The notes: a model not told the origin generated them from the sequence alone. A stretch of DNA of 64,000 nt from Trinickia sp. (GCF_035492435.1 NZ_DATJJF010000094.1:18576-82575); one strand, 5' to 3'. Positions 4,345 through 63,214 are shown, counted from the first letter of the stretch. Translations and numbers: made by a program.

Positions 4345-5592
4345 TCATGCCTTGCTGATGAATGGGCTGAACGGCACCGGCTTTTCGATATCTTTCGACT
4401 TCCACAGGATGTCAAAGCCCTGATTGGCGTTGATCGAGCCGATCATGTCGCCGCGCCAGAGGTACTGATTGGATGCGTCCATCTTCACGGTATAGCCGGC
4501 CGGATCGACCATCGACTGTCCCGCAAGCGCCGCGCGCACCGCGTCCGGTTTTGTCGATTTGGCTTTCTCGGCTGCCTGCGCCCACATATGGATGCCGAGG
4601 TAGGTGGACACCATCGGATCAATGATCATGTCGGGTCGGTGCTTCAAGTTGTGCGCCGTGACATAGTTCTTCCAGTCGAGCTTGATCTGCCGGTTTTGCG
4701 GCGTATCCACATTCTGGAAGTAGCACCAGCAACTCAGATGGCCGACGAGCGGCCGCGTGTCGAGGCCTTCCAGGTCGCTGTCGACAACATCGAGCCCGAG
4801 GATGGGGATATCGGTCGCGCGGATGCCTTGGTTGACCGCCTCCTTGAACAGCGCCGGAATGGAATCGCCGACGACGGTCATGACGACGATCGCTTGTCCG
4901 CCCGGCTGAGCAGCGAAGTCCTTGATGTCGCGCACAATCGTTTGGAAGTTCGAGTAGCCGAAGGGCACGTAATGCTCGCGCCAGGCCGACTCCGGAATGC
5001 CCTTCGTCTTAAGGTAGCCCTTGAGCATCTTGTTGATCGTGCGCGGCCACACATAGTCGCTGCCGATCATGTAGAAGCGTTTCGCCTCGCCGCCTTGCTC
5101 GCTCATCAGGTAATCGATGGCGGGCAGCACGGAGCTGCTCGGGGGCGAGTTCAGATAAACGACATTCTTCGACTCCTCTTCGCCTTCGAAGTGAAGCGGA
5201 TAGAAAAGAAGATTGTCTTGCGCCTCGACCACAGGCAGGATCGACTTGCGCGACACCGAGGTCCAGCCGCCGAAGATGGCCGAAACGTGATCGCGCAGAA
5301 TCAGTTGTTTCGAGAGCTGGGCGTACATCGGCCAATCCGAGGCGGGGTCGACCACCACACCTTGCACCGGCCGCCCCATGACGCCGCCCTTCGCATTGAT
5401 CTGGTCGAACGTCATCAGCGCCATGTCCTTGAGCAACGATTCGCCGTTGGCCATCGTGCCCGACTGCGAGAACAAAAGGCCCAGCTTGATCGGATCCGCG
5501 CCGCCGGCCGCGAACGCCGCCTTGGGCAGTGTCGAGCCGGCAGCCGTGATCACCCCCGAACCGAGCGCCGACAAAAAGGTACGCCTTTTCAT
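4345..5592 (-). CDS. urtA: Periplasmic urea/short-chain-amide binding protein (UrtA/FmdD family)
   Basis: Track ORF trimmed to the ATG at 5592 (MKRRTFLSALGSGVITAAGSTLPKAAFA, twin-arginine-like signal), preceded by GGAG. Type I periplasmic binding fold blocks are present (IKLGLLFSQSGTMA, GGWTSVSRKS, LFYPLHFEGEE). Confidence 0.85.
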   Translation of the reverse strand: MKRRTFLSALGSGVITAAGSTLPKAAFAAGGADPIKLGLLFSQSGTMANGESLLKDMALMTFDQINAKGGVMGRPVQGVVVDPASDWPMYAQLSKQLILRDHVSAIFGGWTSVSRKSILPVVEAQDNLLFYPLHFEGEEESKNVVYLNSPPSSSVLPAIDYLMSEQGGEAKRFYMIGSDYVWPRTINKMLKGYLKTKGIPESAWREHYVPFGYSNFQTIVRDIKDFAAQPGGQAIVVMTVVGDSIPALFKEAVNQGIRATDIPILGLDVVDSDLEGLDTRPLVGHLSCWCYFQNVDTPQNRQIKLDWKNYVTAHNLKHRPDMIIDPMVSTYLGIHMWAQAAEKAKSTKPDAVRAALAGQSMVDPAGYTVKMDASNQYLWRGDMIGSINANQGFDILWKSKDIEKPVPFSPFISKA

Positions 5593-59164: not shown

Positions 59165-60631
59165 ATGAACATCATCGAACCCGGCATCCGCAATCTCGTC
59201 ACGGCAAAAGACGCACTGCTCACCCCCTACGGCCTTGACGAAGCGCTACTTGCCCGCACGCTCGCCGACATCTTCACGCACCGCGTCGACTACGCGGACC
59301 TGTACTTCCAGGCAACGCGCAGCGAAGCGTGGAGCCTCGAGGAAGGCATCGTCAAATCAGGCAGCTTCAGCATCGACCAAGGTGTCGGGGTGCGCGCCGT
59401 CGCGGGTGACCGGACGGCGTTTGCCTACTCCGACGATCTTTCCCCCGAGGCGCTGCGCCAGGCGGCGGAGGCCACGCGCTCGATCGCCAAGGCGGGCGGC
59501 GGCAAGCAAAAGATCAAAGTGGCGAGCGTGCTCAAGGGCGTGGGCGGACGCGATCTTTATCTGCCGGCTGACCCGCTCGCTTCGCTCGACGCAACAGCGA
59601 AAGTGAAGCTGCTCGAGCGGGTCGAGCAAATGGCGCGCGGCCGCGATCCGCGCATCACGCAGGTCATGGCGGGCTTGGCCGGCGAGTACGACATCGTGCT
59701 CGTCGCGCGCAGCGACGGTGCGCTTGCCGCCGATGTACGGCCGCTCGTGCGCGTCTCGGTGACGGTCATCGCCGAGCAAAACGGGCGGCGCGAGATCGGC
59801 TCGGGCGGCGGCGGCGGCCGCTTCGACTATGGCTACTTCACCGACGAAGTGCTCGCGCGCTATGTCGACGACGCCGTGAAAGCGGCGCTCGTCAACCTCG
59901 ATTCGCGGCCCGCGCCGGCCGGTACGATGACGGTCGTGCTCGGGCCGGGCTGGCCCGGCGTGTTGCTGCACGAAGCCATCGGCCACGGCCTCGAAGGCGA
60001 TTTCAACCGCAAGGGATCCTCGGCATTCGCCGGACGCATCGGCGAGCGCGTCGCGGCCAAGGGCGTGACGGTCGTTGACGACGGCACGTTGCCGAACCGG
60101 CGCGGCTCGCTCAACATCGACGACGAAGGCAATCCGACGCAATGCACGACGCTGATCGAGGACGGCGTGCTGAAGGGATACCTGCAGGATTCGCTCAACG
60201 CGCGCCTCATGAAGATGCCGGTGACGGGCAATGCCCGCCGCGAATCGTATGCCGCGCTGCCGATGCCCCGCATGACGAACACCTACATGCTCAACGGTGA
60301 CAAGGATCCGGCCGAGATCATCGCCTCGGTGAAGAACGGCCTTTATGCGGTCAATTTCGGCGGTGGGCAGGTCGACATCCCGAACGGCAAGTTCGTGTTC
60401 TCGGCCTCCGAGGCCTACATGATCGAAAACGGCAAGGTGACCTACCCCGTCAAGGGCGCGACGCTCATCGGCAGCGGCCCCGAGTCGCTCAAATACGTGA
60501 CGATGATCGGCAATGACATGTCACTCGATACGGGCGTCGGCGTCTGCGGCAAAGAGGGCCAGAGTGTGCCGGTCGGCGTCGGTCAACCGACGCTGAGGAT
60601 CGAAAAGATGACGGTGGGCGGCACGGTGTAA
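59165..60631 (+). CDS. tldD: Metalloprotease TldD
   Basis: Track ORF trimmed to the ATG at 59165 ([10 protein letters not shown]...). Contains [11 protein letters not shown] (zinc motif), RRESY and [12 protein letters not shown]. Confidence 0.93.
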
Positions 60632-60751
60632 CGCTGGGCCGCACGCGCGGAGGCGCCCGAAATCTGCACGAGGGACGAGGGCGCGTCACGCAAGACATCC
60701 GCATCATTCGATGTTTTTGTGCGGCCATTTCGCATTTTTTGGATGGGCGAC

Positions 60752-60780
60752 TTGTCAGTCGTGCCTGATCGAGGTATAAA
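60752..60780 (+). promoter_or_regulatory. Sigma-70-like promoter for the aroG leader transcript
   Basis: TTGTCA-17 nt-TATAAA, matching 5/6 positions in each hexamer with optimal spacing. It lies about 20 nt upstream of the leader ORF. Confidence 0.6.
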
Positions 60781-60798
60781 GCGATATACCATTTCCTG

Positions 60799-60885
60799 AT
60801 GCGAATCACCACTGCCATGTCCACGAAGTTTTATTTTTACTTCTTTTGGCATCTCAGTCCGCCGGCGGATCGAGAGGGGTGTTAG
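60799..60885 (+). CDS. Candidate aromatic-amino-acid leader peptide (MRITTAMSTKFYFYFFWHLSPPADREGC)
   Basis: The codons atg cga atc acc act gcc atg tcc acg aag TTT TAT TTT TAC TTC TTT TGG cat ctc agt ccg ccg gcg gat cga gag ggg tgt tag were read directly. Seven consecutive Phe/Tyr/Trp codons occur. An alternative start is the ATG at 60817. No obvious Shine-Dalgarno sequence. The ORF is too short for the supplied track. Confidence 0.6.
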   Translation: MRITTAMSTKFYFYFFWHLSPPADREGC

Positions 60886-60912
60886 CGCGTTGAGCGAACC
60901 CGAATTCCGAAG

Positions 60913-60943
60913 AAACCGCCGGCAAAGCCCGGCGGTTTTTTTT
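60913..60943 (+). terminator. Intrinsic terminator (attenuator) between the leader peptide and aroG
   Basis: AAACCGCCGG-CAAAGC-CCGGCGGTTT followed by TTTTT: a 10-bp stem with 7 G-C pairs and a run of 8 T in total. It lies 85 nt upstream of the aroG ATG and about 280 nt downstream of the tldD stop. Confidence 0.75.
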
Positions 60944-61027
60944 CGCCTGCGGCTGTCGACAATGCCCTCAGTGGCCAACGCGGCCCATGCCACGAAGCCG
61001 TACTGAATCGATATGGAGAAACGCAGC

Positions 61028-62101
61028 ATGCCCCCGCACAATACGGACGATGTCCGCATCCGCGAATTGAAAGAGCTGATTCCACCCGCCCATCTGATCC
61101 GCGAGTTTCCGTGCACGGAAGCGATGTCGGACCTTATCTTCAACGCACGCCAGTCGCTGCACCGGATTCTGCATGGCATGGAAGACCGGCTCATCGTCAT
61201 CATCGGCCCCTGCTCGATCCACGATCCCAAGGCGGCGCTCGAGTATGCGGGCCGGCTCGTCGAGCAGCGAAAGCGCTTCGCGGGCGAGCTCGAGATCGTG
61301 ATGCGGGTCTACTTCGAAAAACCGCGGACGACCGTCGGCTGGAAGGGACTCATCAACGATCCTCATCTCGACAACAGCTTCAAGATCAACGACGGCCTGC
61401 GCGCGGCGCGCGAACTGCTCGTCGGCATCAACGAGCTCGGTCTGCCGGCCGGCACTGAGTTCCTCGACATGATCAGCCCGCAGTACATCGCCGATCTCGT
61501 CTCGTGGGGCGCCATCGGCGCGCGGACAACCGAATCGCAAGTGCACCGCGAGCTCGCGTCAGGCTTGTCGTGCCCGGTGGGCTTCAAGAACGGGACGGAC
61601 GGCAACGTCAAGATCGCCGTCGATGCCATCAAGGCCGCGTCGCAGCCGCATCATTTCCTTTCGGTGACCAAGGGCGGACATTCGGCGATCGTCTCAACCG
61701 CCGGCAACGAAGACTGCCACGTGATTCTGCGCGGCGGTACGCAGCCGAACTACGATGCCGAAAGCGTCAATGCGGCGTGTTCCGCCGTGGGCAAGGCAGG
61801 ACTCGCCGCGCGGCTCATGATCGACGCGAGCCATGCGAACAGCTCCAAGAAGCATGAGAACCAGATTCCGGTGTGTGCCGATATCGGGCGGCAAATCGCC
61901 GGCGGCGACGAGCGCATCGTGGGCGTCATGGTGGAGTCGCATCTGAACGCGGGACGCCAGGACTTGCAGGAAGGCTGCGCGCTGAACTACGGGCAAAGCA
62001 TTACCGACGCCTGCATCGGCTGGGATGACAGTATTGGCCTGCTTGAGGGTCTCGCGCAAAGCGTGAAACAGCGTCGTGTCGCGCGGGGTAGTGGCAATTA
62101 A
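61028..62101 (+). CDS. aroG: Class I 3-deoxy-7-phosphoheptulonate (DAHP) synthase, AroG-like
   Basis: Long blocks are identical to E. coli AroG as remembered (IVMRVYFEKPRTTVGWKGLINDPH; GARTTESQVHRELASGLSCPVGFKNGTDG; SITDACIGW). The ATG at 61028 is preferred over 61013 because GGAG lies 9 nt upstream and the N-terminus then aligns with AroG (MPPHNTDDVRIRELKEL). Confidence 0.93.
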   Translation: MPPHNTDDVRIRELKELIPPAHLIREFPCTEAMSDLIFNARQSLHRILHGMEDRLIVIIGPCSIHDPKAALEYAGRLVEQRKRFAGELEIVMRVYFEKPRTTVGWKGLINDPHLDNSFKINDGLRAARELLVGINELGLPAGTEFLDMISPQYIADLVSWGAIGARTTESQVHRELASGLSCPVGFKNGTDGNVKIAVDAIKAASQPHHFLSVTKGGHSAIVSTAGNEDCHVILRGGTQPNYDAESVNAACSAVGKAGLAARLMIDASHANSSKKHENQIPVCADIGRQIAGGDERIVGVMVESHLNAGRQDLQEGCALNYGQSITDACIGWDDSIGLLEGLAQSVKQRRVARGSGN

Positions 62102-62223
62102 CAGGTAGCGCATCGAACTGGAGTTGGCCCGGCGCTGGCGTATTGATGGCTATTCCGGGCCTTTCTTGTTGTTGCGGTACTGCTTTGCGATTTCGCGGGC
62201 GGGTGCAGTTTGTCCCGACTCAT
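62098..62223 (-). pseudogene. Probable remnant of the HEPN (DUF86) toxin gene partnered with the upstream MNT gene
   Basis: A 41-codon ORF (MSRDKLHPPAKSQ...) starts in an ATGA overlap with the MNT stop, which is the usual MNT-HEPN junction. It is far shorter than the ~110-130 aa expected, lacks an Rx4-6H motif, and runs into the aroG stop codon. A shifted frame reads APAREIAKQYRNNK, weakly DUF86-like. Confidence 0.35.
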
Positions 62224-62510
62224 ACCGACACCGCCTCATTAATTACTGTCGCCCGGCAAGAGACGGGCAACGCCTTCGGCGTCAAAACGTCCACATTAAT
62301 ACCGAGAAGACGCGCCAAGGCGGCTTGAATGATGCCGGTATCGAGCAAGGAGGTGTCAAGGGTCGGATCGACAAGAGTGTCTAGGTCGCTGCCATCCCGA
62401 TCCTCACCTCGCGTAACTGAGCCAAAGACACGCGGGTTCGTCGCCCTGTTGGAAGCAACGATCCTGCGAATCTCTGCGCGGTGGCGACTTAACACTTCGG
62501 ATGGCTTCAC
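62220..62510 (-). CDS. Nucleotidyltransferase-domain protein (MNT-type antitoxin of HEPN-MNT modules)
   Basis: 96 aa. FGSVTRGEDRDGSDLDTLVD is the minimal-nucleotidyltransferase GS...D.D motif. Confidence 0.8.
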   Translation of the reverse strand: MKPSEVLSRHRAEIRRIVASNRATNPRVFGSVTRGEDRDGSDLDTLVDPTLDTSLLDTGIIQAALARLLGINVDVLTPKALPVSCRATVINEAVSV

Positions 62511-62662: not shown

Positions 62663-63214
62663 TCAAAGCCGTCGCCCGCGCTGCCAGAGCACGTCGGCCC
62701 CGCCCCCTGCGCGATTGAGCACGCGCGCGAGGACAAAAAGCAAGTCGGACAGGCGGTTGACGTATTGGCGCGGCGTGGCCTCGAGCGCTTGTTGGTGCCC
62801 CAATGCCACGATGGACCGTTCGGCGCGGCGGCACACGGTGCGGCAGACATGGGCCAACGCCGCCGCACGGGTGCCGCCCGGCAGGATGAATTCCGCAAGT
62901 GGGGGCAAATCGGCGTTGTAATGGGCGAGCCACTCGTCGATTCGCGCGAGATGTGCGTCGCCGATCATCGTTCGGCCCGGCATGCAAAGCTCGCTGCCAA
63001 GATCGAACAGATCGTGCTGCACGACGGTAAGGGCCTCGCTGACATCGTCGGGCAGGCTTTCGCACAGCAGTAAGCCAATCTGCGAGTTCAGTTCGTCAAC
63101 CTCACCTATCGCGGCGATTCGCACATCGTCCTTGCGCACGCGGCTGCCGTCACCGAGGCCGGTCGTGCCCTCATCGCCGGTACGCGTTGCGATTTTGCTC
63201 AAGCGGTGGCCCAT
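62663..63214 (-). CDS. PduO-type ATP:cob(I)alamin adenosyltransferase
   Basis: 183 aa. The N-terminal KIATRTGDEGTTGLGDGSRV matches the TRTGD.G.T motif. Also contains FILPGG and ARTVCRRAER-like CRTVCRRAER. Confidence 0.88.
   Translation of the reverse strand: MGHRLSKIATRTGDEGTTGLGDGSRVRKDDVRIAAIGEVDELNSQIGLLLCESLPDDVSEALTVVQHDLFDLGSELCMPGRTMIGDAHLARIDEWLAHYNADLPPLAEFILPGGTRAAALAHVCRTVCRRAERSIVALGHQQALEATPRQYVNRLSDLLFVLARVLNRAGGGADVLWQRGRRL

Follow-up and report, generated by a model that had tools for sequence, protein, structure and literature searches.

A candidate leader-peptide attenuator with mixed phenylalanine, tyrosine and tryptophan codons upstream of the DAHP synthase gene aroG in Trinickia sp. 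and other proteobacteria

A stretch of 64,000 nucleotides (nt) from Trinickia sp. (GCF_035492435.1, NZ_DATJJF010000094.1:18576-82575) was analysed around the 396 nt that lie between tldD and the codirectional gene aroG; the whole 64-kb stretch is called the window, all coordinates are counted within it, and all features are on the + strand unless stated otherwise. aroG encodes a class I-alpha DAHP synthase (3-deoxy-7-phosphoheptulonate synthase), the enzyme through which carbon is committed to the synthesis of Phe, Tyr and Trp. The spacer before it very probably carries a classical ribosome-mediated transcription attenuator, in which translation of a short leader peptide would sense charged tRNA-Phe, tRNA-Tyr and tRNA-Trp together; that the three are sensed jointly is suggested by the codon content of the leader. 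Found in the spacer were a cluster of codons for the end products of the pathway within a short open reading frame (ORF), an intrinsic terminator before the structural gene and an antiterminator that is mutually exclusive with this terminator, which are the parts by which leader-peptide attenuators are recognized.

The aromatic codons were read directly from the window at 60829..60849 (TTT TAT TTT TAC TTC TTT TGG; four Phe, two Tyr and one Trp, encoding FYFYFFW), exactly where a run of seven had been placed by the initial annotation. They form the sole run of at least four consecutive Phe, Tyr or Trp codons in all six frames of the window (G+C content 62.8%), for which the chance expectation of runs of at least seven aromatic codons is about 7e-5 at an aromatic codon frequency of 4.7%. 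For the ORF around them, 28 codons had been annotated, and an ORF encoding MRITTAMSTKFYFYFFWHLSPPADREGC is indeed present at 60799..60885; its ATG at 60799 is in frame and adds MRITTA, but is not kept in Burkholderia and its close relatives. The conserved start, which is probably the true one, is the second ATG at 60817, giving a leader peptide of 22 amino acids (MSTKFYFYFFWHLSPPADREGC, 60817..60885) with the stop codon TAG at 60883..60885. Changes in the aromatic codons among relatives are synonymous (TTT/TTC, TAT/TAC). Three of the four Phe codons of the window leader are TTT, compared with a TTT:TTC ratio of 5:27 in tldD, aroG and a neighbouring hydrolase gene, and slow decoding of these rare codons may make the sensor sharper. 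The TAT:TAC ratio in the same three genes was 8:20.

Three alternative RNA pairings were obtained by folding of the leader region. The attenuator's intrinsic terminator (3:4; AAACCGCCGG-CAAAGC-CCGGCGGTTT plus eight T's, 60913..60943) consists of region 3, the left arm AAACCGCCGG at 60913..60922, and region 4 at 60929..60943, which comprises the right arm CCGGCGGTTT (60929..60938) and the T's (60936..60943); it folds at -19.8 kcal/mol, ends 84 nt before the ATG of aroG (61028) and lies precisely at the position first proposed for it. The core of region 2, GCCGGCGG at 60861..60868, is located inside the leader ORF, where 14 nt separate its GGCGG core from the last aromatic codon, and its alternative partner is CCGCCGGC at 60916..60923, with which it forms the antiterminator (2:3). 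A hairpin 1:2, the missing part of the pairing scheme that the initial annotation had left incomplete, was found at 60852..60875 (UCUC-A-GUCCG, loop CCGG, CGGAU-C-GAGA; minimum-free-energy folds, -10.9 kcal/mol alone) and would serve as anti-antiterminator, possibly also as pause hairpin; RNAalifold gives it as the consensus structure for Burkholderia and its close relatives, a group in which its pairs are invariant and show no covariation. When the window RNA was cut before region 4, it folded into GCCGGCGG:CCGCCGGC and a second short helix, whether or not a ribosome was placed on the aromatic codons, and the full-length RNA folded into 1:2 and 3:4. A self-complementary element inside the ORF had also been annotated, and the palindrome TCCGCCGGCGGA is present at 60858..60869. 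Relatives have CCGCTGGCGGA at this site, which is not self-complementary; the terminator arms read CCGCCGG / CCGGCGG in the window and CCGCCAG / CUGGCGG in relatives, and the window leader element has the matching U-to-C change (Leu to Pro), so that the palindrome arises incidentally. As it was found in this window only, it was rejected as a functional feature.

A promoter for the leader and aroG is predicted at 60752..60780 (-35 TTGTCA at 60752..60757, 17-nt spacer, -10 TATAAA at 60775..60780), the position initially given for it, and both hexamers are kept with the same spacing (TTGYCA-17-TATAAA) in Burkholderia and its close relatives (12 genomes). Transcription would start near 60787, and in this group the leader would have a U-rich 5' untranslated region (UTR) of about 29 nt. 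A scanner for consensus promoters and terminators listed neither the leader promoter nor the attenuator terminator; the promoter was missed because TATAAA lacks the T that the scanner requires at position 6, and the miss of the terminator is presumably an artefact of its stem and tail rules; the terminator fold itself is unambiguous. According to the mechanism that we propose, transcription would start at this conserved promoter, and translation of the 22-codon leader would begin at 60817. A shortage of aromatic aminoacyl-tRNAs would make the ribosome stall within 60829..60849 and cover region 1 (60852..60861), leaving region 2 (60861..60868 and its 3' flank) free to pair with region 3 (60916..60923) once the latter is transcribed; the terminator stem (60913..60922 with 60929..60938) would then be blocked, and RNA polymerase would read into aroG. 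When the aromatic tRNAs are charged, the ribosome would pass region 2 to the UAG at 60883, region 2 would be occluded or re-paired with region 1, and 3:4 would fold, so that transcription would stop at the T-run near 60943. What the analysis documents are the parts with their conservation and geometry, the alternative pairings, the covariation and an exclusive association with aroG; that the ORF is translated, where transcription begins, the stalling and its effect on aroG are predictions.

For comparison with relatives, one genome per GTDB species was scanned with the AroG protein, which gave 80 loci with 90% to 64% identity. A locus was counted as positive if the 500 nt before aroG contained a short ORF with at least five aromatic codons per nine-codon window, followed by a hairpin and a T-run. 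The unit was found before aroG in 42 of the 80 loci, in alpha-, beta- and gamma-proteobacteria, and the short ORF and aromatic run are kept well beyond the Burkholderiaceae. Positive units consist of the short ORF with its run of Phe, Tyr and Trp codons, CUGGCGG 8-17 nt after the run and the terminator AACCGCCAG-loop-CUGGCGGUUUU; counted from the ATG through the T-run, the unit is 116-149 nt long, and the mean codon content per leader is about 3.4 Phe, 2.7 Tyr and 0.9 Trp. The aromatic runs read MSAKFYFYFFWHLRPLADREG in Burkholderia, Paraburkholderia and Caballeronia, FYFHFYFSY and FFTAYFYF in Oxalobacteraceae, KFYFAYFWF in Polaromonas, FFFYYFSFYF in Parasutterella, and FYFWYYGF, RFYWYYF and YYFWFYGY in Xanthomonadales; among alpha-proteobacteria, they read SYFWYFSY in Bradyrhizobium and AYSYWYF in Devosia. 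Among the 80 loci, the element was not found before aroG in Rhodocyclaceae, Methylophilaceae, Chitinimonas and Enterobacterales. When the 80 AroG proteins were placed in a rough neighbour-joining tree, a single large clade of mixed beta-proteobacteria, Xanthomonadales and alpha-proteobacteria took in most of the genes that carry the attenuator, so that the aroG gene and its leader seem to travel together, by old descent or transfer; we take this as a lead only. One locus from a metagenome-assembled genome (MAG) labelled Anaerolineae (L056) has an aromatic leader (MSRYFSFFSWYGYF...) before aroG, but the hairpin that follows it (GAGAAGGGCGCAGAGC...GCTCCGCGCCCTTCTC) is longer and quite different, and its T-run is poor; this leader may be a divergent version of the switch.

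Metagenomes were searched blind with the pattern CTGGCGG-N30-60-AACCGCCAG-N3-8-CTGGCGGTTTT, which contains no codon or gene information, and at least 120 sites were found. Among the matches listed, 104 of the 114 with enough upstream sequence had at least 5/9 aromatic codons immediately before the first CTGGCGG, compared with 7/2085 (0.3%) control windows from the same contigs. An aroG homologue followed downstream on the same strand in 101 of the 106 listed matches that had at least 300 nt of downstream sequence, and the aroG alignments of the listed matches begin 9-218 nt after the T-run. Two apparent exceptions, in which aroG was 1154 nt away, were tandem aroG-aroG pairs. The arrangement of attenuator followed by two tandem aroG paralogues was observed in metagenome contigs L087 (1504..3776) and L190 (2872..5147). 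Two tandem hairpins with arms AACCGCCAG / CTGGCGGTT and with neither an aromatic ORF nor aroG were observed in L089, L095, L109, L143 and L200; the hairpin sequence is evidently also used elsewhere, perhaps as an ordinary terminator or repeat.

Pairing was analysed in an alignment of 38 leaders (A1) made with MAFFT, which misplaced region 2 of the Parasutterella sequence L049 by 2 nt, so that the counts of antiterminator pairs are slightly conservative. In all three proteobacterial classes, the terminator consensus is AA(A/G)CCGCCAG-loop-CUGGCGG(U/C)UUUU. The CUGGCGG in the leader ORF is identical to the right arm of the terminator and is therefore able to pair with the left arm. The distance from the last aromatic codon to the start of its GGCGG core is 8-17 nt. 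The heptamer occupies frame 2 in 30 sequences, frame 1 in 4 and frame 0 in 4: most members translate it as P-L-A, Massilia and a Lysobacteraceae MAG as W-R, Polaromonas and two betaproteobacterial MAGs as G-G, and a third such MAG (L019) as A-G-G, while Devosia has the core GGCAG, read as W-Q. Conservation in three reading frames points to a constraint on the RNA and not on the peptide, and for this reason a conserved PLADREG arrest motif acting at the peptide level was rejected. Coordinated changes affect the leader element and both terminator arms. The usual combination of U (leader), A (left arm) and U (right arm) is replaced by C, G and C in the window and in Polaromonas L069; Parasutterella L049 agrees with these two only once its leader element is realigned by 2 nt; L010 has G and C in the arms and still U in the leader, a G-U intermediate; and in the Formosimonas MAG L030, another position is changed in all three (AGCGG in the leader, CCGCU / AGCGG in the arms). 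In the terminator, 95.5% of the alignment cells were paired (slid controls 21-60%), with compensatory changes on both sides of four pairs. In the antiterminator core, 88.4% were paired (13-50% in slid controls with the 3' partner moved by 1-3 columns), and 95-100% at the inner five pairs. The initial annotation had proposed this pairing between the ORF element and the left arm for the window; it is supported by the coordinated three-way changes and by the independence of reading frame, and the covariation statistics as such are modest.

Clades were also folded separately with RNAalifold, and all three structures were recovered in the Burkholderia group, Xanthomonadales and Bradyrhizobium. In Oxalobacteraceae, 1:2 and the terminator were recovered, and region 3 pairs with a second GCGG copy instead of the GGCGG core. 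The 1:2 hairpin is predicted in each clade consensus, but the partner of region 2 varies by clade; in Bradyrhizobium, codons 3-6 (CCGUCGCCA) pair with UGGCGGCGG. With a modelled ribosome on the middle aromatic codon, 2:3 forms in 36 of the 38 sequences, and with the ribosome on the last aromatic codon in 29; in the fold of the leader only, region 2 is paired upstream in 37/38, and in the full-length RNA the terminator forms in 36/38.

Several observations weigh against an attenuator of this kind. The -10 box TATAAA of the window lacks the final T, which is usually invariant. The pairing percentage of the antiterminator was reached by 18 of 500 shuffles, and the core helices are nearly invariant, so that covariation comes from few positions in a handful of lineages. 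L049 and L075 have no 2:3 helix in the minimum-free-energy fold. The distance from the region-2 core to the leader stop codon ranges from 6 to 37 nt, and a ribosome at the stop covers this core in only 16 of the 38 leaders and covers a single nucleotide of it in the window; under replete conditions, many members must therefore terminate by way of 1:2 refolding and of kinetics, which thermodynamic folding cannot show. Finally, a Shine-Dalgarno sequence before the leader ATG was not found in any family member, so that the argument for leader translation is drawn solely from conservation of the ATG and synonymous codon variation. The initial annotation had listed the missing Shine-Dalgarno sequence as a weak point; it is a trait of the whole family and not a defect of the window copy. 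The end of a -10-like box and the leader ATG are 7-8 nt apart in Bradyrhizobium, Devosia, Xanthomonadales and several betaproteobacterial MAGs (for example GTGACA-17-TATATG-GCCTGCC-ATG), which suggests that in these alpha-proteobacteria, Xanthomonadales and betaproteobacterial MAGs the leader mRNA is translated leaderless. Loci with a -35/-10 pair close to the leader ATG are L053, L055, L060, L061, L070 and L079 (Bradyrhizobium), L039 and L051 (Devosia) and L042, L062, L064 and L075 (Xanthomonadales).

Of the other explanations that were weighed against ribosome stalling, the best placed is antitermination triggered by a protein or a small-molecule ligand, riboswitch-like or TRAP-like. The lack of a Shine-Dalgarno sequence and the strong sequence conservation of the RNA elements speak for it; yet outside the ATG, the aromatic run and three short switch elements, the alignment columns are poorly conserved and contain no conserved aptamer-like structure, and no Rfam family matches. 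The aromatic codons vary synonymously and in order and nevertheless always share the frame of a nearby ATG and precede a stop, and the 8-17 nt from the last of them to region 2 fit the footprint of a ribosome. We consider such a ligand-dependent switch very unlikely. An independently functional, conserved aromatic micro-protein, whose small gene is ended by the hairpin while aroG is expressed from a separate promoter, would account for conservation of the leader ATG and the aromatic run, and leader peptides that act in trans are known (peTrpL of Sinorhizobium, PMC7298713). Against this, the order of Phe, Tyr and Trp, the N-terminus, the C-terminus and the length of the peptide vary freely, CUGGCGG is kept in three frames, duplicates a terminator arm and co-varies with it, the leader peptides have no NCBIfam match, and the spacer from terminator to aroG is short and variable (9-218 nt in the metagenome matches listed), with no conserved promoter found in it in the alignment of relatives; this explanation is highly improbable. 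Equally hard to credit is a constitutive partial terminator or a sensor of growth rate or translation coupling, by which aroG would be lowered without aromatic specificity: any slowing of translation could favour read-through, and the poor coverage of region 2 by a ribosome at the stop fits it, but the enrichment is specific to codons for Phe, Tyr and Trp, the products of the pathway opened by aroG, and distinguishes the listed metagenome sites from the controls. The reading that the hairpin merely ends a long tldD transcript, with an inactive promoter at 60752..60780 and an accidental aromatic ORF, has next to no probability, since the codirectional genes 396 nt apart and the promoter missed by the scanner are outweighed by the hairpin and T-run of tldD itself (60719..60741), which are conserved and precede the -35 box, the promoter hexamers kept in 12 genomes, the small chance expectation of the codon run, the blind metagenome matches, in which the element tracks aroG and not the upstream gene, and the 22 attenuator-positive genomes without tldD within the 3 kb examined upstream of aroG, by which a tldD 3' UTR, a scenario raised at the outset, is excluded.

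The proposed aroG attenuator was compared with known systems. The DAHP synthase genes of E. coli are controlled by the TyrR and TrpR repressors. Classical attenuation before a gene of aromatic metabolism, with 1:2 / 2:3 / 3:4 pairings, a Phe-rich short leader and an intrinsic terminator, is found in E. coli pheL-pheA and pheM-pheST (Rfam Phe_leader). These attenuators are not known outside gamma-proteobacteria, have a Shine-Dalgarno sequence, sense Phe only and act on the terminal Phe branch or on Phe-tRNA synthetase instead of the shared first enzyme; the aroG leader, in contrast, lacks a Shine-Dalgarno sequence and has mixed Phe, Tyr and Trp codons. Mixed codons for end products also occur in the multivalent attenuators of E. 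coli thr (Thr and Ile) and ilvGMEDA (Leu, Val and Ile), in which shortage of any one amino acid relieves termination; these belong to other pathways and have no sequence relation to the aroG leader. In Rfam 15, the best match within 60400..61300 at E-values up to 10 was Leu_leader (17.4 bits compared with a gathering score of 50), which covered the terminator only, and at the gathering threshold no family matched the attenuator in 14 representative relatives. Six leader peptides from four clades had no match in NCBIfam at E-values up to 10. Exact look-up in a collection of 15 billion proteins found 2 of 10 leader peptides, both unnamed; the other members of one cluster are called 'hypothetical protein'. 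A full-text literature search that included the peptide strings returned no description of a proteobacterial aroG leader peptide, in agreement with what the initial annotation had supposed for beta-proteobacteria; an earlier computational prediction may exist. In its proposed mode of action the element resembles the trp, phe and thr attenuators. As far as could be checked, the aroG attenuator lies outside all catalogued families and is apparently undescribed. Its unusual traits would be mixed sensing of Phe, Tyr and Trp at the entry enzyme of the pathway and translation of a leader without a Shine-Dalgarno sequence.

The closest precedent is aroR-aroF of Corynebacterium glutamicum (Neshat et al. 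2014), which also has an aromatic-codon leader before a DAHP synthase gene. As summarized in PMC11802643, this leader contains Phe-Tyr-Phe, stalling under Phe limitation raises transcription, and the supply of Tyr reportedly makes no difference. As described there, aroR has three aromatic codons in contrast to 5-9 in the aroG leaders, which usually include one Trp, and a further difference is the sequence-conserved CUGGCGG / CCGCCAG of the latter in three proteobacterial classes. The two occur in different phyla, there is no evidence of common descent, and the comparison is with the published description of aroR. A predicted upstream ORF with Phe codons, directly followed by an intrinsic terminator (uORFC-13-1), precedes the aroF gene of Acholeplasma (Brewer et al. 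2021, PMC8632094; computational only); it occurs in Mollicutes, with a ribosome-binding site, a U-run coding for at least one Phe and 24 representatives. It resembles the aroG leader in having an upstream ORF and a terminator before a DAHP synthase gene; its sequence is unrelated, and its ribosome-binding site sets it apart. Sinorhizobium meliloti trpL (rnTrpL) is an alpha-proteobacterial, ribosome-dependent attenuator whose terminated RNA and peptide have additional roles in trans (PMC7968998 and PMC7298713). It has Trp codons only and controls trpE(G), whereas the aroG leader has mixed codons and would control aroG; by analogy with rnTrpL/peTrpL, the terminated aroG leader RNA, which would be abundant and about 130-155 nt long, or else the aromatic peptide, may also act in trans. 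Attenuation was once suggested for aroF and aroH of E. coli and Shewanella (cited in PMC2659441), and in comparative regulons, control of DAHP synthase genes by TyrR/TrpR is seen only in gamma-proteobacterial lineages (PMC5343134).

On a wider and more tentative view, which we hold at slightly less than even chances, the aroG leader would be an old, undescribed module that is common to or exchanged among alpha-, beta- and gamma-proteobacteria, acts as the chief transcriptional control over the flow of carbon into the shikimate pathway, integrates the charging of Phe, Tyr and Trp tRNAs and is translated leaderless in many lineages. If the attenuator is real, it would fill a gap in the account of DAHP synthase control in Burkholderia, Oxalobacteraceae, Xanthomonadales and Bradyrhizobium, among plant-associated, clinical and industrial bacteria, and an unannotated conserved intergenic element would be explained, giving a new family for Rfam and for annotation of leader peptides. 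Strains for the production of aromatic compounds could be de-regulated directly by deletion of the attenuator. The element would further offer a clean natural leader that mixes codons for three end products, and its translation without a Shine-Dalgarno sequence, possibly leaderless, would bear on the coupling of transcription and translation in attenuation.

The genes next to the leader were assigned as follows. The upstream gene encodes TldD (NCBIfam NF008006, 666 bits). Its own intrinsic terminator, GTGCGG-CCATTT-CGCAT plus six T's at 60719..60741, was matched by the scanner just upstream of the leader promoter and is kept in 11 relatives as GCGGA-TTTC-CCGC-ATTTTT. AroG was identified with the equivalog NF006723 of NCBIfam (592.8 bits, cut-off 568) and is 87-90% identical to AroG of Paraburkholderia, Caballeronia and Burkholderia; the Shine-Dalgarno sequence of aroG is GGAG at 61015..61018, and GGAGAA before the ATG is kept in relatives. 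In the 14 relatives compared with Rfam, the only match was a tandem glycine riboswitch (RF00504; 45.5 and 40.1 bits) at 4974..5180 (- strand) of the Stenotrophomonas maltophilia locus L064, about 1 kb downstream of aroG, which is ordinary and unrelated to the attenuator. 3' of aroG in the window, two ORFs on the - strand were judged by eye from their translations: one of 96 amino acids (62220..62510) resembles a small nucleotidyltransferase, and one of 183 amino acids (62663..63214) resembles a PduO-type cob(I)alamin adenosyltransferase.

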